Source: an uncultured Actinomycetes bacterium
Lineage (GTDB): Bacteria; Actinomycetota; Thermoleophilia; RBG-16-64-13
Length of the DNA: 64,000 nt
Assembly (NCBI GenBank): GCA_963706025.1
Contig: CAVPLM010000005.1
Location: forward strand, 928,001-992,000
Reading direction: 5' to 3'
Part shown: positions 42,065 through 63,447 of the stretch, piece by piece
Numbering within the stretch: the stretch's first letter is position 1
Layout: every line of letters starts with the position of its first letter
The notes under the pieces: generated by a model
Databases searched by the model: none
What the model was told of the DNA's origin: nothing
The model's input: only the letters and a program-made list of their open reading frames with translations
Program-made: the position numbers and the translations under genes

Positions 42065-42322
42065 GTCGTCTCTCCTCGCTAGAATCCCGCAGTTCTGCTC
42101 ACAGCTTAATGACGATCCGGCCGCCTGGCAAACCGTTTCGGAACTCGCCGCGCGAGCGACGCCACCGGTGGGGCGACGCCGGTGGCGACGACGCCGATAG
42201 GACGACGCCGCTGGGCGACACCGGCGGGGCCGGTGAGAACGGCCTGCGATGGACGGACGGGTGGGTTTCGGAGTACTGTTCACGCGGCAACCAGAGGACC
42301 CAAGGGGTCCAGAGGTGGAAGA

Positions 42323-42409
42323 ATGAACCTCGAAACGGAGACGCCGGAGGAGATCGCCATCAGCATCGCCGCCGAGCTCGTCCGGGTGAGGGCGGGCAAG
42401 AGCAGATGA
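42323..42409 (+). pseudogene. XdhC C-terminal tail (28 aa), coupled to the next gene by ATGA
   Basis: MNLETETPEEIAISIAAELVRVRAGKSR matches the XdhC terminal motif aetPeEIAvSI.AE; GAGGTGG upstream. Confidence 0.7.
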
Positions 42410-43086
42410 GCCCGGCCGGCGGGATAGCCGTCATCGTGCTCGCGGCGGGCAAGTCCTCGCGCATGGGCACGAGCAAGCTCCTGCTACCTCTCGGCGCCGT
42501 GCGCGCGATCGAACGGCTGATCGGTTCTGTCTCCCGGGCAAACGTCGACGATATCGTCGTCGTGACCGGACACGATGCAGACAGGATCACGCCCGTCCTG
42601 GACAAGCTCGCAGTGCGTCGAGTCCATAACGCCCGGTACGAGTCGGGGATGTTCTCCTCCGTTCGCACCGGAGTGAAGGCCTTGGCCGACGGCGTGGAAG
42701 CGTTCCTGGTCCTGCCGGCGGACTTAGCCTTGGTCAGGACGGAGGTCCTGGACCGGCTGATCGACGGCTTCCGCGAAAGCGGGCGCGAGATACTGCACCC
42801 GTCTTGCTGCGGGCTTCGGGGCCATCCCCCGCTTGTTGCCGGCCGCTACATAGATCCCCTGCTGCAGGCGGATGGCTGGTGCAGCCTGCAGGACTTCTTT
42901 CGCGTGTACCCTGAAGCTGAAGTCGAGATAGAGGTGGATGATCTCAGCATCCTCATGGACATGGACGACGAGGAGGACTACCGTAGGATGAGCCGGTTCG
43001 CAGGGTTCCTCGACGCGACGGCCAACACCGCGGCCGAAGCTGGAACTGGCTCTCCGGACGCAGGGAGATGGTGCGGTGTCGCCTGA
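42406..43086 (+). CDS. MocA-like nucleotidyltransferase domain (probably the N-terminal part of a fusion)
   Basis: VLAAGKSSRMG..KLLL, GMFSSV, LPAD, GHPP, DMD..EDY. Confidence 0.88.
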   Translation: MSPAGGIAVIVLAAGKSSRMGTSKLLLPLGAVRAIERLIGSVSRANVDDIVVVTGHDADRITPVLDKLAVRRVHNARYESGMFSSVRTGVKALADGVEAFLVLPADLALVRTEVLDRLIDGFRESGREILHPSCCGLRGHPPLVAGRYIDPLLQADGWCSLQDFFRVYPEAEVEIEVDDLSILMDMDDEEDYRRMSRFAGFLDATANTAAEAGTGSPDAGRWCGVA

Positions 43087-43609
43087 AGACGCCCTCTACC
43101 TCCTATCGGTGCTCGAAGTCCCCGACCTGGTCGTACGGCATTGTCAGACGGTTGCGACCGCGGGTGAAGCGCTGGCGGAGGCGATCAAGCCGCATGTTCC
43201 GAGCCTCGACGTCGGCCTGGTCCGCGCGGCCGGCCTGCTCCACGACATGGCCAGACCCAAGCCTAGGCACGCGCTCGTCGCTCAGAACATGCTTGCCAAC
43301 CTCGGCTTGAGCCGGCTGGGCGCGATAGTGGGTGCGCACATGGTCCTGCCGGCCGAGCAGTTGGACACTCCCCTGGTGACCGAAGAGCAACTGGTCTACT
43401 TGGCCGACAAGCTGGTGATAGAGGACAGGATCGCCGGACTCGAGCAAAGAGCGGCCCGCGCTCTATCCAGACGAGGCCAGGACCCCACCGCGGTGGAGGG
43501 AGTCAGAAGGAAGATGCGGGCTGCTCAGATCATCCAGGAGAGGGTGGAGACCATCCTCCAACGTCCGCTGGACGAGGTGCTGCTACGAGAGATACGGCCG
43601 TCTATCTGA
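43076..43609 (+). CDS. HD-domain protein (probably frameshifted from the upstream NTP transferase)
   Basis: VRHC..VA, AGLLHD.AR...HA, H, VYLADK. Confidence 0.82.
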   Translation: MSPEDALYLLSVLEVPDLVVRHCQTVATAGEALAEAIKPHVPSLDVGLVRAAGLLHDMARPKPRHALVAQNMLANLGLSRLGAIVGAHMVLPAEQLDTPLVTEEQLVYLADKLVIEDRIAGLEQRAARALSRRGQDPTAVEGVRRKMRAAQIIQERVETILQRPLDEVLLREIRPSI

Positions 43610-44205
43610 TCCGACATACCGAGTTCGTCGTGTTCGATGACCAACAGCGTTTCAGCGGCCAAGCGGACCCGCCGCTCAGCTCCTCCGGCATCGAGCACGC
43701 GCACCGCCTGGCGGACCGTCTAGGGCAGGTCCACTTCGACTCCGTGCACAGCAGCGACCTGCAGAGATGCCTGTTGACGGCCGAGGTCATCGCGAGAGCG
43801 AGCGGTGTGCCGGTCCGGCCGGATATCCGGCTCCGGGAGATCGATACCGGCCTCTGGGAAGGGCTTACTTTCGAGGAGGCAAGGACGCAGTATCCGTTCG
43901 AGTACGCCGAGCGCGAGCGCGACCTCGTAGGCTATCGCTTTCCGGGCGGAGAGAGCTTCCGCGACCTGCACGAGAGGGTCGTTCCGGCCTTCGCTCAGAT
44001 CGTCGATGAAGGTGGAGAGAGCATCCTCGTCGTGGGGCACCGGGGAGTCAACCGAGTGTTGCTATGCGACTTCCTTGGTCTGCCGCTGGAGAGTCTTTTC
44101 TCGATCGAGCAGGACTACGGCTGTGTCAACCTCGTCAGGGCTTCGCGGCTACCGAATGGCGCCCGCCGCTTCGAGGTGACCGCGCTGCCTACCCTGGAGT
44201 CCTGA
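43597..44205 (+). CDS. Histidine phosphatase (CobC/GpmB-like); no own start, probably frameshift-fused to the HD domain
   Basis: AVYLIRHT upstream of the 43630 ORF; SSDL.R...TA, LREI..G.WEG, PGGES, VVGH. Confidence 0.85.
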   Translation, partial: AVYLIRHTEFVVFDDQQRFSGQADPPLSSSGIEHAHRLADRLGQVHFDSVHSSDLQRCLLTAEVIARASGVPVRPDIRLREIDTGLWEGLTFEEARTQYPFEYAERERDLVGYRFPGGESFRDLHERVVPAFAQIVDEGGESILVVGHRGVNRVLLCDFLGLPLESLFSIEQDYGCVNLVRASRLPNGARRFEVTALPTLES

Positions 44206-44210
44206 AACGC

Positions 44211-44975
44211 CTAGCGGACGATCACGGCGAGACGCTCGCCGGTGGCGGCCTGCTTGCAGGCCTCGCAGAGGTCGTAGTAGTCCTCCGGCAGGTCGCCCCG
44301 AGCCGCGACCGCGGCCCGGTGGGCCTCGGTCATGAACGGAGTGTGGCAACTCCGGCAGGCGGAGAGCTCGAAGGTACGACCCCAGATGGTGCGCGTGGTC
44401 GCGGTGTCCTCCATGGGGATGCAGTGCGTCGGGCACGCCAAGTGGCAGGCGCCGCAGCCCACGCAGGCGTCGGCGGCGGCCTGGTCGAACGGCGGGCCCA
44501 CGCTCTTGTGATCGCCGCGGCCCAGCGTGGACAGCGCGTGGTAACCAAGGGCAGCGCACACCCGCACACAGAGCTCACACAGGATGCAGCCCGGAAGCGG
44601 TGCGTCCGCGACCGGGGGGAACAACGAATGGGTCACGCCCAGCCGGGCGGCCAGCTCCTGGAGCACCGGCGCGGCCGGGGCGTAGGGCATTAGGAGCTGC
44701 AGGTTCATGGCCCGGTGCTTGCGGATGCGCGGTGAGTCCGTCACCACTTCGAGGCCCGCCGATACCGGGTAGTCGCAGGATGTGGTCAGCGCCGCCTCGG
44801 TGCGGCCGGGACGGCGCACCTCCACCAGGCAGAGACGGCAGGCGGCGATGGCGGGCACGGCTTCGTGGTGACACAGCGCCGGAATGTCGTAGCCGGCGCG
44901 CCGGGCCACGTCGAGGAGGCTCGCGCCCGCCGGCGCCGTCACCTCGACATCGTCGATCCTCAGCCTGACGTCCAT
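44211..44975 (-). CDS. NuoG/HydA N-terminal-type Fe-S subunit without catalytic domain
   Basis: IPALC...ACRLCLVE...SC (2Fe-2S), CILCELCVRVC, CVGCGACHLACP, C-terminal CxxC...CxxC. Confidence 0.88.
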   Translation of the reverse strand: MDVRLRIDDVEVTAPAGASLLDVARRAGYDIPALCHHEAVPAIAACRLCLVEVRRPGRTEAALTTSCDYPVSAGLEVVTDSPRIRKHRAMNLQLLMPYAPAAPVLQELAARLGVTHSLFPPVADAPLPGCILCELCVRVCAALGYHALSTLGRGDHKSVGPPFDQAAADACVGCGACHLACPTHCIPMEDTATTRTIWGRTFELSACRSCHTPFMTEAHRAAVAARGDLPEDYYDLCEACKQAATGERLAVIVR

Positions 44976-44985
44976 CTATGACCTC

Positions 44986-46839
44986 CTACCGGACGAGGAC
45001 GGCGTCGTACCGGCACACGTCCCTGCAGATGCCGCACTTGATGCACAGCTCCTGCTCGATGGTATGGGGTTGCTTCTTCTCACCGGCCACAGCCTGCTGC
45101 GGGCAGCGCCGGGCGCAGAGCATGCAGCCGGTGCAGTTCACAGGGTCGATGGTGAAGGTGATGAGCGCCTTGCACACCCGGGCCGGGCAGCACTTCTCAT
45201 CGACGTGGGCAAGGTACTCGTCGCGGAAGTAGCGCAGCGTCGAGAGCACCGGGTTGACCGCGGTCGTCCCCAGGGCGCACAGAGAGCTGGCTTGGACGGT
45301 CTCGGCCAACTCCTCCACGAGGGCGATGGTGTCACGAGTACCGCGGCCTTCCGTGATGTCTCCGAGCAACTGGTGCAGGCGCAGGAGCCCCTCGCGGCAC
45401 GACGTGCAGTTGCCGCAGGATTCGGAGGCGAGGAATTTCAGGAAGTATTTCGCCACGTCCACCATGCAGGTGTCTTCGTCCATGACGATCATGCCCCCGG
45501 ACCCCATCATCGCGCCCTCGGAGACCAGGGTGTCGAAGTCCACGGGCAGGTCCAGCTTGTCCGCCGGCAGGCAGCCCCCTGACGGGCCGCCGGTCTGGAC
45601 GGCCTTGAAGGCCTTGCCGCCGGGGATGCCGCCGCCGATGTCGAAGATGATCCGGCGCAGGCTTATGCCCATCGGCACCTCGACCAGGCCGGTGTTGTTC
45701 ACCTTGCCCACGAGGGAGAAGATCTTCGTTCCCTTGGAGCCCTCGGTACCGATGGAACGGAACCACTCGGCGCCTCTCAGCACGATGTGAGGCACGTTGG
45801 CCCAGGTCTCGACGTTGTTGACGTTGGTGGGCTTACCCCAGAGGCCTTTCTCGGACAGGTGGATAAGCCGGCGGTGCGGCACGCCGCGGCGCCCCTCGAG
45901 CGACGCCATCATGGCGCTCGCCTCGCCGCACACGAATGCACCGCCGCCGCGGCTGATCTGGATGTCGAACGCCAGGTCGCTGCCCAGGATCGCCTCGCCC
46001 AGCAGGCCGAGCTCACGCGACTGCTCGATCGCAGTGATCAGGCGTTGCACGGCCAGCGGGTACTCCTGACGCACGTAGATGTACCCCTCGCGGGCGCCCA
46101 TGGCCAGGGCGCCGATGGTCATGCCCTCAAGGACGCTGTGCGGGTTCCCCTCGAGCACCGAGCGGTCCATGAAGGCGCCGGGATCGCCCTCGTCCGCGTT
46201 GCAGACCACGTAGCGCAGATCGCCGGGGGACTTGCTGCACGCCTCCCACTTCCGGCCCGCCGGGAACCCGGCGCCGCCCCGGCCGCGCAGGTCGGCGCGC
46301 TTGACCTCCTCGAGGATCGCTTCCGGTCCCATCTCCAGGGCCCGCACCAGCGCCGAGTAACCTCCGAGCGCGATGTAGTCGTCTATGGACGTCGGGTCGA
46401 GGTGACCGTTGTCGCGCAGCACCAGCCGCTGCTGGTTGCGGTAGAAGGGGATGTCCTCCTCCTTGCGGTGCTGCACGCCGGTCGTGGGATCCACGTAGAA
46501 CAGCCGCTCCACCATTTCGCCGCCGAGCACCGTCTTCTCGACGATCTCGGCGACGTCCTCAGCGCGCACGTGCTGGTAGAGGACGCCCTCCGGGAAGAGA
46601 AGCACGAGCGGCCCGCGCTCGCAGAACCCATGGCACCCGGTCGCGCGCAGCTCGACCTTGCGGTCGGCGCCGCGCGCCCCCAACTCGGCGCGCAAGGCCT
46701 CGAACACCTCCATGGCTCCCTGCGCCCGGCAGCCGGTGCCGCCGCACACGGCGATGACCGCCCTGCCCGGGTCCCGGGCCGCGACCAGGACGGCGCGATG
46801 GCGCTCAAGAGCATCCGGGTCGGCCAGTCTGACGGTCAT
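44986..46839 (-). CDS. nuoF: NuoF/HydB-type FMN/NADH-binding subunit (bifurcating-type architecture)
   Basis: CGGTGC...[47 protein letters not shown], two C-terminal 4Fe-4S motifs. Confidence 0.93.
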
Positions 46840-46852
46840 GTCGGCTTCCGCT

Positions 46853-47344
46853 TCACGCGTGCTCCTCATGCTTCAGGAGCTTCTTGACCAGCCGAGAGAG
46901 GTGGTCCGCAGTCATGTGTCCGTGATAGGCGCCGTCGATGAGGACCAGGGGGCCGAGGGCGCACGCGCCCACGCAGTTGACCTCCTCGACGGTCAGCGAC
47001 AGATCGGCCGTGGTGCCGCCCGCGGCAACGCCCGTGTCCCGCTCGAGCTGCTCGAGCAGCCGGCGGGCGCCGCGCACGTGGCAGGCGGTGCCCATGCACA
47101 CCGTGCACGTGTGCTCGCCGCGCGGCGAGGTGTGGAAGCCCTCGTAGAAGGTCGCCACCCCGAACACCTGGGCCGGCGGCAGGCCGAGGTGGGCCGCGGC
47201 CTGCCGCAGCGCCTCCTCGGGTAGATAGCGTAACTCGCCCTGTAGATCGTGAAGAACGTTGACGAGGCTGCCCGGGTCGCCCTGTGGATAGCGGGCCAGC
47301 ACCGCTTCAACGCGGCGTGGGTCGATGGTGGGTGCGACGCTCAT
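46853..47344 (-). CDS. nuoE: NuoE/HydC-type 2Fe-2S subunit
   Basis: VATFY..F...PRG.H...[20 protein letters not shown]. Confidence 0.93.
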
Positions 47345-47488
47345 GGGCCGGCCCTTGCTGCGGCGGGCCGATCGCGGCCCCGGGCATGAGTGGCGCTCAC
47401 GCCACTGCCGGCAGCGTCCACCGCGCGGAGCCCGGTGGCGCCGTTGCCCGGTATGACCAGCTTCTGGCCCACCATTCTGACTATGTGC

Positions 47489-49366
47489 TTAGGCTTGCTT
47501 GAGGCTGGCCGGCAATCTGTCGGCCAAACCTAGCTCCTGAGCTCTTTCCGGGGTAAGGTTACCCTTCTTGTCCCAACCTCTCAGCTTGTAGTACTCGGGC
47601 AACATCTCGCTCAGTTTGACCACGTGGCCCTTGGCCGGGCCGTCGGGCATGGGCTCTTCCAGCATGCGCTTGGGCAGGGTGTCGTCGGCGCCGGTGAGGC
47701 CGGCCCGGCGGTTGAAGAGCGTCTCCAGGTTGAAGATGCGCTCGCCCGTGCGCATGAAGCCCTCGTATCCACCCATGTCGATCCCGGTAGCCGCCTCGAT
47801 GAGCTCCCGAGTCTGGTCTTCGTCCACATGGAGGAAGAACGCGAAGTTGCACATCCCGCAGGCGTCGATCATGCAGAACCAGTCCTGGACCTCTTTGCCC
47901 AGAAGCGGCTTGTCGTCACAGCGCAGCGGGTCCACCTGCGTGATGCCCCGGTCACTGGTCAGCTTCCATACACATACGCCGTAGAGATCGAGGTCCTGAA
48001 CCTCACCACGAATGTGGCAGGCGCCGCGCGGCTGGGTGGCATATCCCAAGCCCATGCCTTGCAGGGCTCGTCCGTCGTAGCTGGCGAAATCCTGCTTCTT
48101 CACACCCATGAAGCATTCGGGGTGGCCGTATTTCTCGGCCAGACGGTAGGAGCCCTCGGCCAGCACGTCGCCGAAGCCCTCGCGATTGGCCATCATCTCG
48201 GTCAGCTTGACGATGGCCGTGGCATCTCCGAACCGGAGCGGGAAGCCGATGTCTTCCGCGGGGATGTAACCCCGCTCGGACATCTCCATAGCGCAGGCGA
48301 TGGTACCGCCGGCGGAGATGGTGTCCATACCCATCTCGTTGCAGATGAAGTTCGCCTTGGAGATGGCGTTGAAGTCGCTGACTCCGCAGTTGGAGCCGAA
48401 CATGCCGATGGTCTCGTATTCCGGTCCCCCGCCCACGCCGGCGAATTCAGGGTCGGTCACCCTGGTGACGCGGCCGCAGGCGACCGGGCAGGCCGGGCAG
48501 GCCGTCCCCATGAACTTCCTGACCGAGATGGTGCTGGCCAGAGCGTCGCCATCTATCTTCTGCCAATCCTCATAGACCCCCTCCTGGAAGTTGCGGGTCG
48601 GAAGCGCCCCGAACGACTGGACCAAGCCGAGCACACCCGGAGTGCCCACTCCGTGGAACCACGTGACCTCGTCGCTGTTCAAGGTGTCAAAGGCGCTTTC
48701 CGCCGCCTGGTAGAAGGCCTTGCGATCCGCGACCTTGACGCCCTTGCTACCCTTGACGGCAATGGCTTTCAAGTTTTTGGAGCCCATCACCGTGCCCACG
48801 CCGGACCGGCCGGCGGCCCGGTCGTCGTCGTTCATGACGCAGGCGAAGCGCACGAGCTTTTCTCCTGCCGGGCCGATGCTGGCCACCTTCGCCCGCGGTG
48901 ACGTGGCGGCCACGACCGCGTCTCGGGTCTGCTGGGAGTTGAGTCCCCACAGCGACTGAGCATCGCGGATCTCGACGCTGTCGTCATCTATCCACAGGTA
49001 GACGGGCTTCTTGGCCTTGCCTTCGACAATGATCATGTCGAAGCCGGCGTACTTGATTTGCATGGCGAACTCGCCCGCGGCGCTCGCGTTGGCGATGGCC
49101 CCCGTCAACGGCGACTTGGTCACCAACATGTAACGGTTGGCACACGGGGCCCCGGTGCCGGTGAGAGGCCCGGTGGCGAAGATGAGCTTGTTCTGCGGGC
49201 TGAGCGGGTCGACCGCGGGGTCGATCTCATCGTAGAGATACACCGTACCCAGGCCAATGCCACCGATGTAGTCTTTGGCCCTCTGCATGTCCAGGTCTTC
49301 GACTGAGACCTCGGACTTGGTGAGGTTGACGCGGAGGATCTTGCCTTGCCAGCCGTACATGGTCAT
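47489..49366 (-). CDS. aor: Tungsten aldehyde:ferredoxin oxidoreductase (AOR/WOR large subunit)
   Basis: KSPLTG, IGPAGE, RAAGR.G.G.VMGSKNLKAI, CPACPVAC, PEYET, DTIS, RGACH, YY.LRGWD. Confidence 0.95.
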   Translation of the reverse strand: MTMYGWQGKILRVNLTKSEVSVEDLDMQRAKDYIGGIGLGTVYLYDEIDPAVDPLSPQNKLIFATGPLTGTGAPCANRYMLVTKSPLTGAIANASAAGEFAMQIKYAGFDMIIVEGKAKKPVYLWIDDDSVEIRDAQSLWGLNSQQTRDAVVAATSPRAKVASIGPAGEKLVRFACVMNDDDRAAGRSGVGTVMGSKNLKAIAVKGSKGVKVADRKAFYQAAESAFDTLNSDEVTWFHGVGTPGVLGLVQSFGALPTRNFQEGVYEDWQKIDGDALASTISVRKFMGTACPACPVACGRVTRVTDPEFAGVGGGPEYETIGMFGSNCGVSDFNAISKANFICNEMGMDTISAGGTIACAMEMSERGYIPAEDIGFPLRFGDATAIVKLTEMMANREGFGDVLAEGSYRLAEKYGHPECFMGVKKQDFASYDGRALQGMGLGYATQPRGACHIRGEVQDLDLYGVCVWKLTSDRGITQVDPLRCDDKPLLGKEVQDWFCMIDACGMCNFAFFLHVDEDQTRELIEAATGIDMGGYEGFMRTGERIFNLETLFNRRAGLTGADDTLPKRMLEEPMPDGPAKGHVVKLSEMLPEYYKLRGWDKKGNLTPERAQELGLADRLPASLKQA

Positions 49367-49851
49367 TCAGCCTCCTGGTAGGCGGTGAGAAGGGTGGCGG
49401 CCACCTTGGCTTTGCGGTCAAGGATGCCCTCGTCGCTGTCCGCGAAAGTAAGTGCGCCCGCGGCGCAGAACTTGACGCACTGCGGCACTCCGTCGCAGAG
49501 GTCGCACTTCTCGGCATAGCCCTCGTCCATGACCGTGATGCAACCATACGGGCAGGCCAGCGCGCACATCCTGCAACCCACGCAGCGGTCCTTGTTCACG
49601 GTCACCACCGTGGCTCCGGTGAGGGCGTTGATTCCCTTGCTTATGGCCCCCGAGGGGCAGATACGCGCGCACCAAGCATCCTCGCATTGGCGGCACAGCA
49701 CCGGGATAGAGACCTCCTGCTCCAAGAAGATGGTCTTGTGGATCCGAGCCTTGGAGGGGTTGAACTCACCCTTGTGCTTGAAGGAGCACCACAGCTCACA
49801 GCTACCGCACCCGGTGCACTTCTCGATGTTTACATTGATCATCTTGGTCAT
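49363..49851 (-). CDS. 4Fe-4S dicluster subunit (AOR small subunit)
   Basis: CTGCGSCELWC, CRQC...C..ICP, CVGCRMCALACP, KCDLC...PQCV.FC; overlaps the aor start. Confidence 0.92.
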   Translation of the reverse strand: MTKMINVNIEKCTGCGSCELWCSFKHKGEFNPSKARIHKTIFLEQEVSIPVLCRQCEDAWCARICPSGAISKGINALTGATVVTVNKDRCVGCRMCALACPYGCITVMDEGYAEKCDLCDGVPQCVKFCAAGALTFADSDEGILDRKAKVAATLLTAYQEAE

Positions 49852-49897
49852 GCCTCAACCTCCTGCGAAGACTTGCACGACATGGCCGGCCCCAACC

Positions 49898-50191
49898 TCA
49901 ACCCCCGGCCGTGGGAAGAAACACCGTGACCAGATCGCCGTCGTGAAGCGACGTGTCCAAACGCTCCGCGAAAGCGATGTTCCTACCATTCACCAGCACA
50001 TTGACCCCGGGCCTGACGGAACCCGGCTGCGCGTATATGGTCTGCGTCTGCTCGGGCGTGGTGCATATGAAGCCCAAGAGATCGCCGGCGGTGCGCGCCC
50101 GGGCAAGATCGAGGCTCATCTCCGTCTGCCGAAAGACGTCCTTCAAGCTGCCAAGAAACCTCACCGTCACTTTGCCGTTGGCGGCTTCCAT
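49898..50191 (-). CDS. moaD: MoaD/ThiS sulfur carrier
   Basis: VLVNGRNI, L.DGD.V...P..GG C-terminus. Confidence 0.88.
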   Translation of the reverse strand: MEAANGKVTVRFLGSLKDVFRQTEMSLDLARARTAGDLLGFICTTPEQTQTIYAQPGSVRPGVNVLVNGRNIAFAERLDTSLHDGDLVTVFLPTAGG

Positions 50192-50208
50192 CGATACGCT
50201 GATCGCTC

Positions 50209-51027
50209 CTAATCGCTTCGGGATCCGGCATCAGGTGGGGTCATCGTAGTAGCGCCGTCCGAACCAGGATACCACCCGTGAGCCGGGGTATGCGCCGGGC
50301 TGGCCGTATCGTCCTCGGTCGTGGCCAGCCCCAGATATGCCCTCCTGACGTGCTCGTTGTCTTGCAGGTGCTTGGCGTCGTCCGCCAGAGTGATGACGCC
50401 CGTCTCCATGACGTAGCCCTTGTCGGCGATCTTGAGAGCCATGCTGGCGTTCTGCTCTATGAGAAGGATCGAGACACCCTCAGTGGCGATGCGGGCGATG
50501 ATCTCCCCCACTTCCTGCGTGACCAGGGGCGACAGACCAAGAGAGGGTTCGTCCAGCAGTAGGAGTTTGGGGGCGCACATCAACCCTCTGCCGATGGCGA
50601 GCATCTGCTGCTCCCCACCGCTCAAGGCCGAGGCGAGCCGGCGCGCTGCCTTTTTCAACACGGGAAAGTACTCGTAGATCTTCTCCAGATCGCTGGCTAT
50701 ACCGGCCTTGTCCCTTCTGAGATAGGCGCCGGTGAAGAGGTTGTCGTAGACACTCATTTCCAGAAACAGCCTCTTGCCTTCTGGAACGTGACCGATGCCC
50801 AACCCCACCACTTTGTCCGGTTTCATCCCATCGATTCTCTTATCCTCATACCAGATCTCCCCCGCCGAAAGCCGTACCAGACCCGAGATCGCCTTCAAGC
50901 AGGTGCTCTTGCCCGCGCCGTTGGACCCGATAAGAGTGGTGATGCTCCCGGCGGCGACTTCCAGAGAGATCCCCTTGAGCGCCCTGACCCCGCCGTAGCG
51001 CACCTCTACGTTCTTCAAGCTGAGCAT
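50209..51027 (-). CDS. livF: ABC ATPase (LivF family)
   Basis: GSNGAGKS, VPEG.RLF, LSGGEQQM, DEPSLGL. Confidence 0.93.
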   Translation of the reverse strand: MLSLKNVEVRYGGVRALKGISLEVAAGSITTLIGSNGAGKSTCLKAISGLVRLSAGEIWYEDKRIDGMKPDKVVGLGIGHVPEGKRLFLEMSVYDNLFTGAYLRRDKAGIASDLEKIYEYFPVLKKAARRLASALSGGEQQMLAIGRGLMCAPKLLLLDEPSLGLSPLVTQEVGEIIARIATEGVSILLIEQNASMALKIADKGYVMETGVITLADDAKHLQDNEHVRRAYLGLATTEDDTASPAHTPAHGWYPGSDGATTMTPPDAGSRSD

Positions 51028-51030
51028 GCC

Positions 51031-51789
51031 TTAGCTCCTACCCAGGTAGGCTTCTATTACTTCTTGATGGGAGCAGACATGATCGGGGCTGCCCTGGCAG
51101 ATCTTCCGGCCGAAGTTGATCACCGTGATCTCCTCGCAGGTGCTCATGACCGCCTTCATGTCGTGCTCCACCAACAAGATGGTTATACCGGTGTCGCGCA
51201 GATGCTTGATGCGTTCCATCATGTCTTTGGTCTCGCTCGGGTTCATACCGGTGACCGGCTCGTCGAGCAGCAGCATCTTCGGTTCGGTAGCCAGGGCCAT
51301 GGCCACCCCCAGAGCTTCCTGGTGACCATGCGGCAAAGACCCAGAGATCTCGTCCTTCACATGGGCTATCCCCATGGCTTCCAGTATGGCGACGGATTTC
51401 TCCTCGATCTCCCTGTCTCGCCGCTTTGTACCTCGGGTCATGAGGTACTGCTTGACGAGCCCCATCCCCGTGTGGAGATGACAGGCCATGACCACATTCT
51501 GGAGGGCAGTCATATCCCGAAAGAGGTTGGTAAGTTGAAAGGTGCGGGCCATCCCTCTGCTGGCCACCATGTGTGGCGGTTGCCCGGTTATGTCCTCTCC
51601 CTGCCAGATCACCTTGCCTCTGGTGGGGTGGAGAAAACCGGTTATGCAATTGAACACGGTGGTCTTGCCGGAGCCGTTGGGGCCGATCAGACCCCGGATC
51701 TCGCCCTCCTCGATGCTCATGTCGAGATCGTCGACCGCCACCAGTTCTCCGAACTGCTTCCTCAGACCTTGTAGCTCGAGAATGGCCAT
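51031..51789 (-). CDS. livG: ABC ATPase (LivG family)
   Basis: GPNGSGKTT, ARTFQ, LDEP, VEHDM, VIEAYLG. Confidence 0.93.
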   Translation of the reverse strand: MAILELQGLRKQFGELVAVDDLDMSIEEGEIRGLIGPNGSGKTTVFNCITGFLHPTRGKVIWQGEDITGQPPHMVASRGMARTFQLTNLFRDMTALQNVVMACHLHTGMGLVKQYLMTRGTKRRDREIEEKSVAILEAMGIAHVKDEISGSLPHGHQEALGVAMALATEPKMLLLDEPVTGMNPSETKDMMERIKHLRDTGITILLVEHDMKAVMSTCEEITVINFGRKICQGSPDHVCSHQEVIEAYLGRS

Positions 51790-52805
51790 CAGTCCTGCTC
51801 CTCCGTCGTCACATTCTCGGGCGTCGTCGAATCCTCAGACGCCTTGCCCCCATCCTGTCTTCGCCGGTACCAGGACTGTAGCCGCTTGGGCACGCCCTCG
51901 AGGCCCTCCGGCAAGAAGAGCAGAGTCAATATCAGGATGGCGCCGTAGAACATGGGCAGCCATTCCGCCAGAGGGTCGAGGAGTTGATCTATCAGCGTAA
52001 GCACGGATACCCCTATGATGGGACCGGCGAAGGTGCCCGTACCCCCGAACACCACCCACACCAGGAGATACAGGGTGGGGGTGAAGCCGAACTGGTTGGG
52101 TGAGATGGCCCACATGCGATGGACCAGGATGACCCCCGCAACCCCGGCGAAGAAACCACCGATCACGAAGACCAGCATCTTGTACTTGACCACGTTTATG
52201 CCTAGGGCCCTGGCCAGACTCTTCTGAGAATGGATGGCATGGAAGGTGGCTCCTATGCGGGATCGGCACACGCGGTACATGAGCCACAGGCAGACTGCCG
52301 TTATCAACAGCGCCAAGAAGTAGTACGGGATGGGCCGGCTGAAATCGACCGCTCCGATGGACCCCGGATCGGGGATGTTCGCCAAGCCCGTGTGGCCCCC
52401 GAAAGGCTGCCTGAACCTGGTCCAGCACAGCCGCATTGCTTCCCCGGCGGCATAGGAGGCTATGAAGAAGGAGAAACCCGTTGTACGGGAGAGGGGAACG
52501 CTCATGATCAACGCGATGACTCCCGCGATGATCGCCGACAGCAGCAGGCTGGGCCAGAATGGCCAGCCCAGGGTCCCCGTGATCAGGGCGCTCGCGTAGG
52601 CGCCTGCGCCCATCAGGGGCAGGTGGGCCAGCGACCAGTCGCCGATTATGGTGATGAGGCGGAAGCTCGACACCAGAATGATGTTGACGAACAGCATGGT
52701 CAGCAGGTCGACGTAGTAGTGACTTAGTAGGAAGGGCAGCACCGCGCCAACGACCGCGAGGACGACCAGAATAAGTGTGGTAGTTAGTGTTTTGCTATTC
52801 CGCAT
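51789..52805 (-). CDS. livM: ABC permease (LivM family)
   Basis: Hydrophobic; SLAH...MGAGAY, GG..G, SRIG, GG.GT..GP..G, LPEGL. Confidence 0.9.
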   Translation of the reverse strand: MRNSKTLTTTLILVVLAVVGAVLPFLLSHYYVDLLTMLFVNIILVSSFRLITIIGDWSLAHLPLMGAGAYASALITGTLGWPFWPSLLLSAIIAGVIALIMSVPLSRTTGFSFFIASYAAGEAMRLCWTRFRQPFGGHTGLANIPDPGSIGAVDFSRPIPYYFLALLITAVCLWLMYRVCRSRIGATFHAIHSQKSLARALGINVVKYKMLVFVIGGFFAGVAGVILVHRMWAISPNQFGFTPTLYLLVWVVFGGTGTFAGPIIGVSVLTLIDQLLDPLAEWLPMFYGAILILTLLFLPEGLEGVPKRLQSWYRRRQDGGKASEDSTTPENVTTEEQD

Positions 52806-53652
52806 GGCCCAACAACCCTTGAGGTCTGACGGCCAGGAATACCAGCAGGAAGACCGTGATCAACAAGTTGGAGATGGTGGAATCGAACACCGTCGTCAAG
52901 ATGGTGTCGAGAAAACCGAACAAGGCGGAGGCCAAAATGGCCCCCTTCAGGTTGCCCTGTCCGCCTATGATCACGATGACGAAGGCCATCCAGATGACCA
53001 TCCCGCCCATGTAGGGATAGACGGACATGACAGGAGCCATCAGGGCGCCGGCCGCCCCTGCCATAGCGCATCCGATCAGCATGGCGATGGCCGAGGCCCG
53101 GTTGACGCTTATGCCCTGGAGTGCGGCCGCCGTTGCGTCCTGGGCGGACGCCCGGAGGGCCCGGCCTATCCGGGTCCGATTGAGGAAGAGTATGAGAATG
53201 GCGATAAGGACGATCGCTCCAACGAATACCATGATCCTCTGAACGTCGACGCTCACACCACCGACGCGGACGACCTCGCCCTTGTACGGAGCCGGGACCC
53301 TCTTCATCTTGCCGACGCCCCACAACCGCCCCACGGCGACCTGCAGGATGAACACGAGCCCTATGGAAGCGATGAAGCCGGGGATCAACTGACCGCGCAG
53401 CGGCCTGAAGATGATTCTCTCGGTGACTGCGCCCAGGATCCCTACGAGGACGATGCCCATCACGAGCGCCGCGAAATACGGCCAGGAGTTGCGGGCATAG
53501 AGGACATAGATCGCGTAGGCTCCCAGCATGTAGAACTCGCCGTGGGCGAAGTTCACGATCTTCATGACGCCGAACACCAGCGTAAGTCCCACGGCCACGA
53601 GAGCGTAGAAGGCGCTGGTTATGAGGGCATTGGCTATTGTCTGACCAATCAT
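52795..53652 (-). CDS. livH: ABC permease (LivH family)
   Basis: YALVAVGLTLVFGVM.IVNFAHGE, GRALRA, RPQGLLG. Confidence 0.93.
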   Translation of the reverse strand: MIGQTIANALITSAFYALVAVGLTLVFGVMKIVNFAHGEFYMLGAYAIYVLYARNSWPYFAALVMGIVLVGILGAVTERIIFRPLRGQLIPGFIASIGLVFILQVAVGRLWGVGKMKRVPAPYKGEVVRVGGVSVDVQRIMVFVGAIVLIAILILFLNRTRIGRALRASAQDATAAALQGISVNRASAIAMLIGCAMAGAAGALMAPVMSVYPYMGGMVIWMAFVIVIIGGQGNLKGAILASALFGFLDTILTTVFDSTISNLLITVFLLVFLAVRPQGLLGHAE

Positions 53653-53736
53653 GTTTCTTCTCGATCTTATTACGTCTTGGCAAGAATCAAGCTGTCACGC
53701 GCCTTTCTGCTACCGGCAGGAGCAGAACACCAGATT

Positions 53737-53768
53737 GGTGGCTGGACCGCTGTCGCGACCCAGCCACC
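53737..53768. terminator. Hairpin between livK and livH (second cluster)
   Basis: GGTGGCTGG ... CCAGCCACC, 9-bp arms. Confidence 0.5.
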
Positions 53769-53803
53769 CATATTCTTCTTCCGAGGCCGTTGCTCCGCCG
53801 CTA

Positions 53804-55188
53804 CTACTGGACCGACAGATTCCATTTCACGAGGTATTTCTCAAGAATCGCCGCGTTGTCGCCCTCTGCCATCCACTCGTTGATGTTTTTCCAGCCCTCG
53901 ATGGCCGGTTTCCCATCGCGGATCACGGTCATGGGCACCGTGGGGGCGAGGAGTTGGTCGATGCCGAAGTACGCCATGCCTGTCCAGTTCCCGGTCCCGA
54001 ACGACCGCGGAACATCCTTTCCGGCCCGCAGCGCCTGGCTGACCGCTTCCCCGTCGATGCTGCCCGCCTGCTGCGCGGCCCACACCCAGACGTCAAGCGC
54101 CGAGGCGTATTCCCAGGTGATCTCCGAGTACGAGCTGTCGGGGTACTCCGCTTTCCATACATCCCAGAATTCCTGGTAGGTCTTGCCGGCGGCAAAAACG
54201 CCTTTTCCAGCTTCGGATCGTCGAAGTCCGGGAAGTTGGACACCGAGCCTTCCATGAACTCCTTCGGGACTTTGGCCAGGATGGCGCCGAAGTCCCAACA
54301 GGCGGAGGTTATGATGCCTTCCCACCCCTGCAGGTAGGCCTGCTCGCAGATCAGTGCTTGATACTCGGGGTAGCAGGCTCCCAGGTTGATGATGTCGGGT
54401 TCACTGGCCAGCACCTTGGTCACGATCTGGGCGAAGTCGGTGGTATCCAGCGAGAAGGGTTCGTCGTACACCACTTCAAGGCCGTCAACTTCGGCCCCGG
54501 CCTCAGACCAAGCGACGGCGGCGATGCCGATCTCATCGTCCTGAGAGAGGATGGCCATCTTCTTCGCGTCCGGATACGTCTCCTTGATATAGCGCACGTT
54601 AAGTGCATGATAGGTGGGGAAGTTGTCCGTCACGGCGAACAGATAAGGCCTGTCCGCTTTCAAGTCCTGTGCGATGAGCGTGAACGAGGGGATCTTCTGC
54701 TCGGTCAGGAACGGTGCCATGGAGGCGCTGGTGGCTCCCCCTAGGTCGAGGATCAACGAACACCCGTCCTCCAACACCAGTTTCCGGGCACCGAGCAGAG
54801 CCTCGTCGGGGATGGCCTGGTTGTCATACTCGACGATCTCGAACGTATAGGTCGTGTCGCCGATCTTCACCCCGCCGGCTTCGTTGTACCAGTTGGTCAC
54901 GATCGTCAGACCTTCCATGCCGGGCAGGCCCCACGCCGCAGCCCCTCCGGTCAGGGGGGCGTTCATGCCGACCTTCACGACTCCGGTCGCACCTGCTGCC
55001 GTTGTCTCGGTCGGCGCTGCGGTCGTCTCGGTCGGCGCTGCGGTCGTCTCGGTCGGCGCCGCGGTCGTCTCGGTCGGCGCTGCGGTCGTCTCGGTTTCCT
55101 CTTCTCCACAAGCGGCCAACATTAGCCCAAGCACCAGCATCAGGCCAAGAGCTATCACGATGAGTTTGTAGCTGCTTACCTTGCGCAT
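53804..55188 (-). CDS. livK: Liv-type substrate-binding lipoprotein; frameshift near 54205 (A-run on the coding strand)
   Basis: Lipobox LAAC, KVG..APLTG, N..GG, DTTDF; C-terminus continues in ORF 53804-54325. Confidence 0.88.
54995..55095 (-). repeat. 21-bp tandem repeat encoding the (TETTAAP)4-TETTAAG linker
   Basis: GTCTCGGTCGGCGCTGCGGTC units on the + strand. Confidence 0.9.
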
Positions 55189-55256
55189 CTTCCCTCCCTA
55201 ATACGTCACTCCGTTACGGACTGAGTACCCCTGCGCCAAGCACTGTTTCCAGATGA

Positions 55257-55282
55257 CTACCTCCTTCTGACCTCCCAGGTCT
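55257..55282 (-). promoter_or_regulatory. Second livK leader: hairpin plus AAGGAGGTAG
   Basis: GACCT-GGG-AGGTC followed by AAGGAGGTAG (55266-55257), 69 nt upstream of the ATG. Confidence 0.45.
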
Positions 55283-55607
55283 GTTATCGCGCGCTTGCCC
55301 ATGAGCGTCCAACCAGGCCGAGCAGATCGAATCGGCTGAGACACGTCATAACTGGGAAGAGGAGGATCGAAAATGGTGCGCGCGCACGGCAGTGACGCGA
55401 GTCGGAGCAGTTGCTGCCTGTCTGCGACGACGATCATCGCCCCTCCCCCTCAGACGCTCCTGCGACATGAATCACCTGACGGCAGTCCCACAATAGTCCT
55501 TCTCGTTGTGTTTTGTCTACCCCCCGGGAGAGGAACTCCTAGCCGCCCGCGGCGCCGCGTTCCAGAGTCCCGGACACTTGGTGAGAGAACCGGAGGTGCA
55601 GTACCGT

Positions 55608-56016
55608 ATGCCCATGTGGACAGGCCGGCAGCTCCTGACCTCGTACAACAATGGAAAGGGCGGCGTTGTCTCTGTGCTCGCCGAGACCTCGATCGGCGTC
55701 ACGTTCGACGAACGCGGCGACCTGGGCGGCCTTGCGGGCTGCAACTCGTTCTGGGGAGCCTACACCACGGACGGCGACACGCTCTCGATCAGCTCCCTCG
55801 ATTCCACCAACCTGTCCTGCACGGAGCCGGCAGGCATAATGGAGCAGGAGGCGGCGTACCTGAGCGCGTTGCGCGACGCCGCCACGTTCAGATACCAGGG
55901 GGGACGCGCTCGAGCTGAGAGCGGCGGACGGGGCTCTCGTCGCCTCGTACGAAGCCTGGAAAGCACCTCCCGGCGGGCTGTTTCATGGTGGTTCCCCGCA
56001 ACCGACCTCGCCGTAG
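55608..56016 (+). pseudogene. Degenerate META-domain paralog without signal peptide, frameshift near 55900
   Basis: LTSY..G.GG.VSVL...GLAGCNSFWG.Y...T.LSCTEPAGIMEQE, close copy of 56115-56594; tail GDALELR...SYEAW.PPGG lies in another frame. Confidence 0.7.
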
Positions 56017-56114
56017 GTGGGTTGGGCCGGGTGAAGTGCTGTAATCTATGAAGTCACTTTTGGCCGTCGAAGGCGATGGGGGTAGACGGCCGATGAACGA
56101 TTGGGGGATCATCC

Positions 56115-56594
56115 ATGAACGGCAAACAGCTGTTGGCACTGCTCAGAGCAGCCGTCGTGCTGGGTGCTCTGTTCGCGGTCGTCTTCTCCTTGGGTTGTGC
56201 CTCCACTGAGCCGGAGTCCGGCGCCGCGCTGCCCGGCACTTCCTGGGTGCTGAGCTCCTACGGAGACGGGAACGGTGGGCTGGTCTCAGTGCTCGAGGAC
56301 ACCCGTGTCAGCATCGCCTTCTCCGATAACGGGGACCTGGCCGGCTTGGCCGGCTGCAACTCGTATTGGGGCACTTACGCCACCGAGGACGACGAGCTGT
56401 CGATCGAATCGCTTGATTCCACTTCCTTGTCCTGCACAGAGCCGGCGGGCGTCATGGAGCAGGAGAAGGCTTGCCTGCAGGCCTTGCGAGATGCCGCCAC
56501 TTTCGAGATCGAGGGGGACACGCTCGAGCTGCGATCGGACGACGGAAGCCTCCTTGCCTCGTACGACGCCTGGAACCTGCCGCCGGGTGGCTGA
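56115..56594 (+). CDS. META-domain (HslJ-like) lipoprotein
   Basis: Lipobox SLGC, GTSWVL, G.AGCN.Y.G.Y, C..P.GVMEQE, GDTLEL. Confidence 0.88.
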   Translation: MNGKQLLALLRAAVVLGALFAVVFSLGCASTEPESGAALPGTSWVLSSYGDGNGGLVSVLEDTRVSIAFSDNGDLAGLAGCNSYWGTYATEDDELSIESLDSTSLSCTEPAGVMEQEKACLQALRDAATFEIEGDTLELRSDDGSLLASYDAWNLPPGG

Positions 56595-56810
56595 TTCCGG
56601 TGCCTTGCCGAGTAGGTCCTACTCGCAACTCATAGTAAGCAGCGCCCCGGCGGCGCGGCAGGCATCCCTGCAGGCCGGCCCGGAGCGGTCTCCAACCAGC
56701 AGCCGGATTGCGCCGCGAATCGTAGACGGGGTACGATAGCCTCATCGGCCACGGCCTTGCCGCCCCGGCACCCGGCCCGATCCCTAGCCCCCGAGCCCCC
56801 GACCTGGGCC

Positions 56811-57122
56811 CTAGCCCCCCGCGATCGGCGGGAATATCGCGACCTCGTCTCCGTCGTGGAGCGTGGCGCCGGCGCCACCCAAGAACGCGATGTTGTGACC
56901 GTTGAGCAAGACGAGGAACCCTTCCCTGATGCCTCCGGACTCGTCAAGGAGCCCATGTCTTTGCTCCGGAGTGGTGCAGAGTGCCTCGAGGAGCCGCCCT
57001 ATGTCCGCCGCTTGCCCAATGGCAACGCGGGACTCCTTCTGCCCGAAGAGGTACCTGAGCCCGGCGAACAGCCTGACCGTGACGCCGGTGTCGTGACTGT
57101 TCTCGCCCGCCTGCATGGTCAT
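56811..57122 (-). CDS. moaD: MoaD/ThiS sulfur carrier
   Basis: VRLFAGLR, LLNG.NI, L.DGDEVAIFPPIAGG. Confidence 0.9.
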   Translation of the reverse strand: MTMQAGENSHDTGVTVRLFAGLRYLFGQKESRVAIGQAADIGRLLEALCTTPEQRHGLLDESGGIREGFLVLLNGHNIAFLGGAGATLHDGDEVAIFPPIAGG

Positions 57123-58981: not shown

Positions 58982-59219
58982 GGTGTGAGTATAGCCGATA
59001 GGCTTGGTCGCTCCCGCCGGCAGTGGCCCCCCTCTGCCCACCCGGAGGCGAGGCAGGCACCGGCCCCCGGTCAGGCCGCGTCGGGGTGGACGGCACAAGA
59101 AACGCCCCGCGAGGGGCAGGATTCTTGCCCGGCCTTCCCGTAGCGTGATACGCTGAGATACACCCTTGCGAGCATGGCAAATCGATCCATGCCGCGCTAT
59201 TCGATGGGGGTATTATCCA

Positions 59220-61862: not shown

Positions 61863-61867
61863 GCTGT

Positions 61868-62497
61868 ATGACGCGCTACGGTTTTGTGATCGATCTGAAG
61901 CGCTGCTACGGGTGCTATTCGTGCCAGGTGGCATGCAAAGCCGCGAACCACACCCCGCGAGGCATCGACTGGGCCCGGTGCGTCCCTGCCGAGACGGGAA
62001 CGTACCCGACCTCTCTCCGCCAGATGCTGCCGCTCGTCTGCCAGCAGTGCAGAGAGCCGGCCTGCAAAGAGGTGTGTCCCACGGGGGCGACGACCCAAGA
62101 CGAGAACGGGATCGTCCACGTGGACCCGAAGCTCTGCATGGGCTGCAAAGCCTGCATCATGGCCTGCCCCTACGGGGCACGGCAGACGGTGAGCGGTTGG
62201 CAGACCTACTTCCCCGATGCCGAGGGTGAGCTCGACCCATACGAAGCTCATGCCAAGAAGGAATGGGAGAAGAAGTACGGCTACGGTATGGCCACCAAGT
62301 GCGACTACTGCATGGATCGTGTGAACGAGGGGCGTCAGCCCGCTTGTGTGGAAACCTGCCCGGCAAAGGCTCGCTACTTCGGTGATCTCGACGACCCCGA
62401 AAGCGAGGTCTCGATACTCATCAGACGTGAGTATGGATTCCAGCTCAACCCCGAGTTCGGAACCGATCCAGCCTGCTACTACCTACCACCGAGGTGA
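61868..62497 (+). CDS. 4Fe-4S dicluster electron-transfer subunit (PadC/PsrB/DmsB-like)
   Basis: CYGCYSCQVAC, CQQC..PAC..VCP, CMGCKACIMACP, KCDYC...PACVETCP. Confidence 0.93.
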   Translation: MTRYGFVIDLKRCYGCYSCQVACKAANHTPRGIDWARCVPAETGTYPTSLRQMLPLVCQQCREPACKEVCPTGATTQDENGIVHVDPKLCMGCKACIMACPYGARQTVSGWQTYFPDAEGELDPYEAHAKKEWEKKYGYGMATKCDYCMDRVNEGRQPACVETCPAKARYFGDLDDPESEVSILIRREYGFQLNPEFGTDPACYYLPPR

Positions 62498-62501
62498 CGA
62501 G

Positions 62502-63416: not shown

Positions 63417-63447
63417 CCTTCGCCTCGGACCTTCGGGACTCGATCCA

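Follow-up and report, generated by a model that had tools for sequence, protein, structure and literature searches.

A candidate electron-bifurcating WorABCSL-type aldehyde oxidoreductase encoded by an apparently mosaic gene cluster of an uncultured Thermoleophilia-like actinobacterium

Introduction

The electron-bifurcating members of the tungsten-type aldehyde oxidoreductases (AORs), or WORs, form a small class which has so far been studied in gut and thermophilic Firmicutes and Synergistetes, the two groups in which Wor-Bfu enzymes were placed by Schut 2022 (PMC9304861). In the main text of the 2026 classification paper (PMC13328260) the bifurcating enzymes constitute Class IV, with 102 members corresponding to less than 1 % of WORs, and their operons are described as being of the SLCBA or the CBASL type, optionally with a ThiS-like gene, worX. 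According to Schut 2022 and Feng 2025 (PMC12318220), bifurcation enables the oxidation of very low concentrations of aldehyde in the presence of much acid. Here we describe a candidate Class IV gene cluster, worX-worS-worL-worC-worB-worA, located at 44211-50191 on the minus strand of a 64,000-nucleotide stretch of DNA from an uncultured Actinomycetes bacterium (assembly GCA_963706025.1, contig CAVPLM010000005.1, positions 928,001 to 992,000; the whole stretch is hereafter called the window).

The closest described system with a solved structure is WorABCSL of Acetomicrobium mobile, a thermophile of the Synergistetes (AmWOR1; cryo-electron microscopy structure of WorABC(SL)3, PDB 9mqx), the genes of which are given in the order CBASL (PMC13328260). 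The hallmarks of its WorA type, as described in Feng 2025, are the loss of cluster A3 and of the A5/H-cluster domain and the presence of a C-terminal four-Cys zinc finger with an alpha-helix docking on WorS. Schut 2022 describes the non-bifurcating homologues of BfuB as lacking clusters B2-B5. In the gut Firmicute E. limosum, ElWOR1 is a Class IV enzyme with a type-1 (WorSLCBA) operon and a proposed function in acetaldehyde detoxification; among operons of this type the position of worX varies, one of its positions being at the start (PMC13328260). The NAD-type AorABC of A. aromaticum (Class III or N-type, PDB 8c0z) has MoaD-like genes in its operon, aorD and aorE, the products of which are taken as cofactor-maturation factors and are absent from the purified enzyme (PMC6365974).

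Results

The genome carrying the window (G000; other genomes, loci and contigs are numbered with G, L and C, respectively) comprises 3.66 Mb in 30 contigs and is 92 % complete with 7.3 % contamination. An earlier note on this DNA, made by a model from the sequence without database searches, had described a co-oriented run livKHMGF-moaD-FeS-aor-nuoE-nuoF-nuoG (N-terminal part), interrupted by a 144-bp gap. All eleven open reading frames (ORFs) were found on the minus strand at 44211-55188, with strong Pfam and NCBIfam scores, in the order livKHMGF, worX, worS, worL, worC, worB and worA. The worX gene (49898-50191) codes for a ThiS/MoaD-like protein of 97 amino acids with a C-terminal Gly-Gly (PF02597, 39 bits; TIGR01687, 46.4 bits), worS (49363-49851) for a small subunit of 162 amino acids with four [4Fe-4S] motifs and a C-terminal extension, and worL (47489-49366) for a pyranopterin (tungsten-type) AOR large subunit of 625 amino acids. 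The gap, at 47345-47488 on the same strand, is a non-coding junction between the WorSL and WorCBA modules. It is followed by worC (46853-47344), coding for a BfuC/NuoE-like [2Fe-2S] protein of 163 amino acids, worB (44986-46869), coding for a BfuB/NuoF-like protein of 627 amino acids, and worA (44211-44975), coding for a short BfuA of 254 amino acids which is homologous to 9mqx_A and corresponds to the N-terminal Fe-S part of NuoG/HydA. The genes are tightly packed, with spacings of 17 bp (livF-worX), 46 bp (worX-worS) and 10 bp (worB-worA) and overlaps of 4 bp (worS/worL) and 17 bp (worC/worB), the packing being broken by two wide gaps, of 276 bp after livK and of 144 bp between worL and worC. 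The order worX-S-L-C-B-A on one strand therefore points to an SLCBA-type Class IV WOR with worX at the start.

The best match of WorA in the PDB was 9mqx_A (E 7.6e-43; residues 5-246 of 254 on residues 7-239 of 247), the next match being 15 orders of magnitude weaker and of partial coverage. Fer2_4 and one di-cluster ferredoxin domain were recognised by Pfam in the 254 amino acids, with no PF10588, Fe_hyd/H-cluster or molybdopterin domain, in agreement with the earlier description of the third subunit as having no H-cluster or molybdenum domain. In an alignment of 24 homologues 17 Cys residues are invariant, among them the predicted cluster ligands 35/46/49/67, 130/133/136/140 and 171/174/177/181, as well as C207/C210/C237/C240, which all 24 sequences have and which correspond in the alignment to the finger of 9mqx_A. 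In an AlphaFold2 model (predicted local distance difference test, pLDDT, 76.3) a C-terminal helix is predicted at 238-253, and a Foldseek search with this model returned 9mqx_A first (E 7.3e-20, template modelling scores 0.68/0.70), followed by a match at 6.2e-12. From its ligand pattern, WorA is predicted to carry clusters A1, A2 and A4 and neither the His-ligated A3 nor A5 or an H-cluster, and its C-terminal putative four-Cys zinc finger and predicted helix would form the "plug" of a bifurcating WOR.

In WorB, for which the Pfam matches included Complex1_51K (150.4 bits), every NuoF-like motif reported previously was located: the ligands of an N-terminal [2Fe-2S] cluster (Cys42/47/79/83), GAFMD at 231, GAFVCGE at 310, GGC at 431-433, DTC at 466-468, H555..C560 C561 P..C566, and two C-terminal CxxCxxCxxxC motifs at 579-589 and 609-619. 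CxxCxxC at 485-491 plus C531 is present as well. Near full-length matches were obtained with 7t2r_B, the BfuB of a bifurcating NiFe hydrogenase (807.7 bits), and with 9mqx_B (802.4 bits). The top solved relatives were all bifurcating BfuB proteins (670-808 bits), whereas NuoF/FdsB/HoxF-type proteins of non-bifurcating enzymes scored at most 384 bits. WorB thus has the FMN/NAD site and the ligand motifs for B1-B5, among them the His/Cys site of B2, as in bifurcating BfuB. WorC has Cys at 80, 83, 88, 124 and 128, matches PF01257 (2Fe-2S_thioredx, 152.5 bits), corresponding to one [2Fe-2S] cluster, and is similar to 7t2r_C (140 bits) and 9mqx_C (114.7 bits). In NCBIfam WorC was nearest to HoxE and WorA to HoxU, all scores being below the equivalog cut-offs.

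Four NuoF-like genes, including worB, are present in the genome. The other three occur with a NuoE gene and with, respectively, a 629-amino-acid NuoF and an FdhA-like molybdopterin protein (C5), a 1036-amino-acid NuoF-GltD fusion and HydA (C10), and a short NuoF of 396 amino acids and HydA (C10). Since each has its own partner, it is unlikely that worCBA serves a hydrogenase or formate dehydrogenase elsewhere, the case which the earlier note had named as refuting its proposal, [NiFe] hydrogenases not having been searched for. As a separate observation, the NuoF fusion at L014 (G000:C10:76000-95900; 12040-15150, minus strand) has a GltD-type Pyr_redox_2/Fer4_20 domain and adjoins an [FeFe] hydrogenase, and the same locus codes at 7573-9792 (minus strand) for a sensory hydrogenase-kinase of 739 amino acids, with an Fe-hydrogenase domain and HisKA/HATPase domains.

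WorL matched AFOR_N (276.6 bits) and AFOR_C (448.9 bits) of Pfam, and in the PDB its top match was 9mqx_D (638 bits), followed by P. furiosus AOR (1aor_A, 595 bits) and A. aromaticum AorB (533 bits). Its CxxCxxxC motif (290/293/297) and a later Cys motif align with 1aor; we take the identity of the ligands from the P. furiosus AOR structure. WorL is accordingly predicted to be an AOR-family large subunit with a pterin site and [4Fe-4S] ligands. All 14 aligned sequences of WorS share 16 invariant Cys residues, and its C-terminal extension is likewise conserved; its alignment to 9mqx_E reaches residue 147 of 152. The product of worX, by analogy with the MoaD-like proteins of A. aromaticum, is a putative maturation factor of the pterin cofactor rather than a subunit of the enzyme.

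Two TupA-like proteins (223.8 and 166.9 bits with a cut-off of 400, the sequences being partial) are candidates for tungstate uptake in this genome. A WtpA-like tungstate/molybdate-binding protein gene (G000:C20:21529-22390) is divided between two neighbouring frames (covering profile positions 3-142 and 143-275) as a result of either a frameshift or an assembly error. With these candidates present, the use of tungsten is plausible.

All five Wor proteins match chains of 9mqx, with the diagnostic features of WorA and WorB present, so that the likeness to WorABCSL and BfuABC modules proposed earlier holds subunit by subunit. On the basis of the gene content and order, the ligand motifs, the chain-by-chain homology and the synteny, the genes worX-worS-worL-(144 bp)-worC-worB-worA are considered, with a probability of about 0.72 for the explanation as a whole, to encode a Class IV, WorABCSL-type bifurcating WOR. 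By analogy with the solved complex, the subunits would assemble, contain tungsten, and bifurcate electrons while working in the direction of aldehyde oxidation. WorL would oxidise aldehydes to acids at its pyranopterin site, and electrons would pass from the W-pterin and the [4Fe-4S] cluster of WorL to the four clusters of WorS, which probably oligomerises via its C-terminal helix into an iron-sulfur wire. WorA would dock on this wire by its zinc finger and helix and hand electrons from A4 over A2 and A1 to B1 and the FMN of the WorBC core, from which one branch would lead to NAD+ and the other via C1 and B3/B4 to ferredoxin.

The cluster shares with A. mobile WorABCSL the five homologous subunits, the WorA without A3 and with finger and helix, the full BfuB cluster set in WorB, and the four [4Fe-4S] motifs and C-terminal extension of WorS. 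It differs in its order (SLCBA here, CBASL there), in the sequence of WorA (36 % identical in the Foldseek alignment), and in having WorSL from a mostly NAD-type clade. The host is also different, being an uncultured Thermoleophilia-like actinobacterium of freshwater, sediment and wetland. With ElWOR1 it shares the described operon type. Like AorABC, it has a MoaD-like maturation gene in the operon, AorA is the nearest solved relative of its WorS, and behind the WorSL orthologues closest to it (in G015, G008 and G621) lies a gene for an AorC-like protein with Pyr_redox_2 and Rubredoxin_C domains. Here, however, worCBA takes the place of AorC/WorN, and WorL scores 533 bits with AorB as compared to 638 bits with the bifurcating WorL. 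The HoxEFU diaphorase has in common with it the trio of NuoE, NuoF and short NuoG, and supplies the names of the NCBIfam families nearest to WorC and WorA, but WorB has extra N- and C-terminal cluster domains and no hoxYH are adjacent.

Scanning species-representative genomes with WorA gave 32 loci, mostly from metagenome-assembled genomes (MAGs) titled as uncultured Thermoleophilia or Actinomycetes, with two titled as Deltaproteobacteria and three, of about 40 % identity, from Anaerolineae/Chloroflexi. The order WorS-WorL-WorC-WorB-WorA is found in 20 of the 32 and the order CBAS in two; one more ends at WorL by the end of its contig, and the rest are cut, frameshifted or without WorSL. Loci of the majority type share 70-79 % identity with the window in WorC, WorB and WorA, as compared to 48-50 % in WorL and approximately 40 % in WorS, and have a ThiS-like worX between worL and worC (in L017 by Pfam; in 18 of the 20 loci by tblastn). 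In a minority type (L026/L089, L088, L110 and L015/L090) worX is in front, as in the window, and WorL is 63-64 % identical. At L015/L090 (G568:C5) both worC and worB are missing after worX-worS-worL, and the next gene is a worA homologue (72 %), which may represent a plug gene that has no BC core of its own. The same genome, G568, also holds a full SLCBA cluster elsewhere (L036).

The whole cluster closest to that of the window is L108, on an independent 15.9-kb metagenome contig, with worX, worS (66 %), worL (76 %), a gap of 314 bp, worC (85 %), worB (83 %) and worA (74 %). The worL-worC junction of the window is therefore not an assembly accident, since it recurs in this contig. At L035 (G576) WorL ends at residue 544 and is joined to WorB starting at residue 344, without WorC; the liv genes there are frameshifted, most of LivM is missing, LivG is absent and there are internal deletions, suggesting that this copy of the cluster is either decayed or badly assembled.

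No promoter-like or terminator-like site was seen in the 144-bp gap, the folding z-score of which is -1.2, and no Rfam family was over threshold anywhere in the window; an RNA element in the gap or upstream was rejected on these grounds. A decayed worX was likewise rejected: a WorX profile of 18 sequences scored the three frames of the gap at -2.2 to -3.7 bits, below random windows (400 from the genome, in three frames, with a best score of 6.7 bits), and tblastn of the WorX of L017 onto the gap gave an E of 0.65. A short reading frame within the gap (47475-41, overlapping worC by ATGA) was judged to be non-coding because contigs from two other DNA runs, of close strains, have 3-4-nt indels at 47424-47429 and because its ATG is not kept in L108. 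A 39-nt stretch of the gap (47436-47474) is 82 % identical to part of the longer gap of L108 (about 3845-3883).

Contigs from two RNA libraries matched worL with 2 differences in 178 and in 226 letters, livF/G with 0 differences in 141 and worB with 8 in 278, corresponding overall to 97-100 % identity. They give a weak hint of expression, DNA carry-over being possible and no contig bridging a junction. Feng 2025 gives a 3:1 stoichiometry for the solved WorABC(SL)3 complex and an approximately threefold higher expression of worSL than of worABC in E. limosum; by analogy, the worL-worC junction may permit unequal expression of SL and ABC.

Several observations weigh against a single integrated enzyme. 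The GC content of worCBA is 0.68-0.72 and that at third codon positions (GC3) 0.87-0.91, above the 95th percentile of the genome (0.861; median 0.779, for 1208 coding-like long ORFs), confirming the higher GC of nuoEFG reported earlier; the GC content of worL and worS is 0.61-0.63 and their GC3 0.847 and 0.828, respectively, and GC3 of the liv genes is 0.75-0.82. In a set of 401 genomes from the class to which the window belongs, a WorA orthologue (E ≤1e-60) was found for 25 of the 79 in another family (f3), as compared to 0 of the 60 other genomes in its own family (f1) and 0 of the 261 in the remaining families. The nearest WorSL, in a different genus of the same family (G015; worX, worS 83 % and worL 82 % identical), is followed directly after worL by a 434-amino-acid Pyr_redox_2 plus Rubredoxin_C protein, that is, an AorC/WorN-type FAD/NAD subunit. 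Among solved structures WorS is most similar to AorA, which belongs to the NAD-type enzyme (8c0z_C, 126.3 bits, as compared to 117.2 bits over residues 1-152 for the WorS 9mqx_E), and the wire-forming helix of WorS, predicted at 140-161, comes from a poor model (pLDDT 59.2) in which it is weakly supported. Among the 32 contigs listed of several thousand (X2, X4, X19, X20) none spans 47101-47372, although this is uninformative. A recent worL-worC junction need not be functional.

WorL is distributed differently from WorA, with orthologues (E ≤1e-200) in 6 of 60 f1 and 13 of 79 f3 genomes; a phylum-wide search, with matches in 5 of 401 evenly sampled genomes, was uninformative. Of twelve WorL orthologues with at least 63 % identity, seven (in G015, G008, G621 and four f3 genomes) are followed by AorC, two by worC-worB and one by worA alone, while for one the contig stops there and for the last no neighbour was recognised within 1.5 kb. 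A more distant AorC-like gene accompanies each of seven other orthologues, which are 53-54 % identical. In G015 the AorC gene is followed by genes for a class-III aminotransferase, an FMN reductase and a META-domain protein and by livKHMGF (73-83 %). No AorC orthologue was found in G000, where the best match to the AorC of G015 is 28 % identical and on contig C10, and none follows worL.

In a tree built from 35 WorL rows (quick search with IQ-TREE, SH-aLRT support in brackets) the window groups with G015, of the NAD type, and two proteins of unknown context (98). The bifurcating L108 is in a second subclade (97), and the third holds L088/L089/L090/L110, with a sequence of the NAD type as its sister (100). 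The three subclades lie inside one 25-row clade (99), and the majority bifurcating type forms a separate clade (100). Forcing the window and L088/L089/L090 into one clade cost 301 log-likelihood units (approximately unbiased test, p-AU 3.8e-54), for a group defined after the tree had been seen and with a quick tree search. In the WorB tree a single clade (98), the base of which is not resolved, contains the window together with L026 and the 14 sequences of the majority type; the paralogues encoded in G000 itself (40-53 % identity) are placed far away from it.

The cluster thus appears to be a mosaic of an AorAB-like WorSL, from a clade mostly of the AorC/WorN type, and a worCBA of other composition and phyletic spread. 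The earlier note had cautioned that nuoEFG might be of separate origin, and the mosaic structure, the GC3, the phyletic pattern, the WorL and WorB trees and the location on an accessory island all agree with this. From the trees, bifurcating and NAD-type output modules seem to have been exchanged several times, in one direction or the other, on this WorSL lineage. Feng 2025 states that the BF (bifurcating) and N types are phylogenetically distinct; contrary to this, the two types appear interleaved in this actinobacterial WorL clade.

The accessory island is of 19.3 kb (44206-63505) and is missing at the site in three genomes of the same genus (G001, G002 and G003). Synteny with these stops at 44205, where a histidine-phosphatase gene ends, and is found again from about 63505-63510; the two flanks are joined in all three genomes and abut in G001 (C9:189279 and 189274). 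The left border is bridged by contigs from two independent DNA runs (X2, 43904-45477; X4, 43600-45484). No integrase was seen, and no repeat common to both ends was found when each end was scanned on its own. The island contains the wor and liv genes, two META-domain genes, a second AOR and a PsrABC-like set, amounting to three pterin-enzyme systems. The second AOR-family gene (57119-59098, minus strand; 659-amino-acid frame, 42 % identical to worL) has an 85 % nucleotide match on the same G015 contig as the worSL orthologue, and downstream of it is a ThiS-like gene (about 56820-57083, minus strand), without a WorS. The PsrABC-like set (59166-63416, plus strand) codes for a molybdopterin oxidoreductase of 898 amino acids, a 4Fe-4S subunit and an NrfD membrane subunit, and at its end a perfect inverted repeat of 15 bp precedes a T-rich run (63448-63481).

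The window is rich in pterin-cofactor genes outside the island too: a pyrogallol-hydroxytransferase-like molybdopterin enzyme with its FeS subunit (26331-29746, minus strand), a MoaF-like protein (24587-25420, minus strand) and a MobA-like nucleotidyltransferase (42109-43086, plus strand) are encoded. A pyridoxal phosphate-dependent group II decarboxylase (3175-4707, plus strand) and a serpin (38748-40166, plus strand) are also encoded in the window. In the whole of G000 there are 19 AFOR_C matches, corresponding to about 17 AOR-family genes, two of which adjoin class-III aminotransferase genes (C5:1070051-1073081 and C3:647944-651248). Such pairs hint at routes from an amine or amino acid via the aldehyde to the acid. 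A transaminase step at the wor locus itself found no support, the 87 % orthologue of the G015 aminotransferase being on another contig, beside carB.

Discussion

The mosaic origin and the island would also be consistent with two separate enzymes lying side by side: a WorSL which is ferredoxin-linked and two-subunit or has lost its AorC partner, and a recently inserted WorCBA which serves another partner or is not yet integrated in function. The 144-bp gap, with no read-through shown across it, and the seven of twelve close WorL orthologues carrying AorC point in the same direction, and the worX-worS-worL-worA of L015/L090 indicates that partial arrangements exist. This explanation is nevertheless improbable. 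WorA has the finger and helix for docking on WorS, with finger Cys residues invariant across 24 homologues, the junction with worCBA recurs for a window-type WorL (76 %) in L108 and for a related WorL (63-64 %) in L088, L089 and L110, the other three NuoEF modules have their own partners, and the genome has no AorC orthologue. Still less probable, to the extent that we regard it as very unlikely, is a non-bifurcating NAD+-linked AOR in which WorCBA is a plain HoxEFU-type diaphorase. The Joint Genome Institute (JGI) annotation does call many WorA homologues 'bidirectional [NiFe] hydrogenase diaphorase subunit', in line with the below-cut-off HoxE and HoxU matches of WorC and WorA. Set against this are the N-terminal [2Fe-2S] cluster, the B2 His/Cys site and the two C-terminal [4Fe-4S] motifs of WorB, which are absent from non-bifurcating homologues, and the distance in score between its bifurcating and non-bifurcating solved relatives. 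No hydrogenase gene is present in the island or, more widely, in 38000-64000, no genome-wide [NiFe] hydrogenase search having been made. The Class IV reading of the locus, as one bifurcating enzyme, is thus preferred.

A branched-chain-type ABC importer is encoded next to the enzyme. It consists of a livK-like substrate-binding protein of 419 amino acids (53929-55188; Peripla_BP_6, PF13458, 110.2 bits), the PF02653 permease pair livH (52795-53652) and livM (51789-52805), and the PF00005 ATPases livG (51031-51789) and livF (50209-51027), for which LivG and LivF were the top NCBIfam matches, under the equivalog cut-offs. The Liv genes are on the same strand as the wor genes, with the livF stop 17 bp from the start of worX, and the two sets are probably co-transcribed. 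Orthologues of the Liv proteins (72-83 %; LivK 78-79 % in G015 and 72 % in L035) stay near wor genes in both G015, about 5.6 kb from the orthologous worSL and in a changed order, and L035, 2.2 kb downstream of worA, despite rearrangement. The spacing and this persistence argue for a functional connection, against which stand the decayed or badly assembled state of L035, the lack of a LivK orthologue in the three same-genus genomes (which are without the whole island), and the presence of a close LivK orthologue in only 1 of 40 relatives. Apart from L035, no LivK, LivH or LivM match was found at the 32 WorA loci, two of which have weak ATPase matches (29-31 % to LivG/LivF), and most WorCBA loci elsewhere thus have no nearby Liv genes. 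A second Liv-type ABC cluster in the window (11033-15963, minus strand) suggests that such importers are common here. The best solved relatives of LivK are weak (E 1.1e-8 to 9.3e-6) and none is close; they are presumably a mix of amino-acid and aromatic-acid binders. On balance we lean slightly towards an unrelated amino-acid importer that merely abuts the WOR cluster. That livKHMGF imports a precursor (an amino acid, amine or organic acid) the catabolism of which yields the aldehyde is a doubtful alternative, and the aldehyde itself is an unlikely cargo. The earlier proposal, of an aldehyde oxidation coupled to NAD+ and ferredoxin with a Liv-imported substrate, therefore stands as far as the bifurcating WorABCSL-type gene cluster is concerned, with the importer as a conjecture attached to it.

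RpoB of G000 is 82-89 % identical to proteins of Thermoleophilia/Actinobacteria MAGs and about 72 % identical to those of Gaiellaceae and Miltoncostaeaceae, and near-identical DNA was found in at least 20 public runs of 12 studies, from freshwater, sediment or wetland metagenomes. Actinomycetota, Actinobacteria and Thermoleophil are not named in the main text of PMC13328260, the supplementary member list of which may include such sequences, and a full-text literature search found no paper pairing 'Thermoleophilia' with 'aldehyde ferredoxin oxidoreductase'. The novelty claimed by the earlier note is therefore one of lineage, relative to the published main texts. The enzyme kind is already known, with a cryo-electron microscopy structure, 102 members and the same operon type, and no new kind of enzyme is revealed. 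The class would be extended to uncultured Thermoleophilia-like actinobacteria of freshwater sediments and wetlands, where it appears to be common (WorA in 25 of 79 genomes of one family).

The evolutionary side is more interesting, the locus being a probable natural chimera on a strain-specific island, in a clade with repeated exchange of output modules. Bifurcating contexts occur at three or more separate positions among NAD types (the window, the L108 group and L088/L089/L110), and for this reason we give even odds to the idea that the WorABC plug and AorC/WorN are interchangeable cassettes on one WorSL nanowire chassis in these anaerobic actinobacteria, the window having caught a recent switch of type on a 19-kb island. 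The WorSL of G015 and of the window are a natural pair, 82-83 % identical, one wired to an FAD/NAD subunit and the other apparently to a bifurcating module, which would be useful for learning the physiological effect of the output module and whether any AorA/WorS wire can accept the WorA helix. If the cassette idea is true, the WorS wire would offer at its free end a generic socket that could serve for re-wiring AORs between NAD-only and bifurcating outputs.

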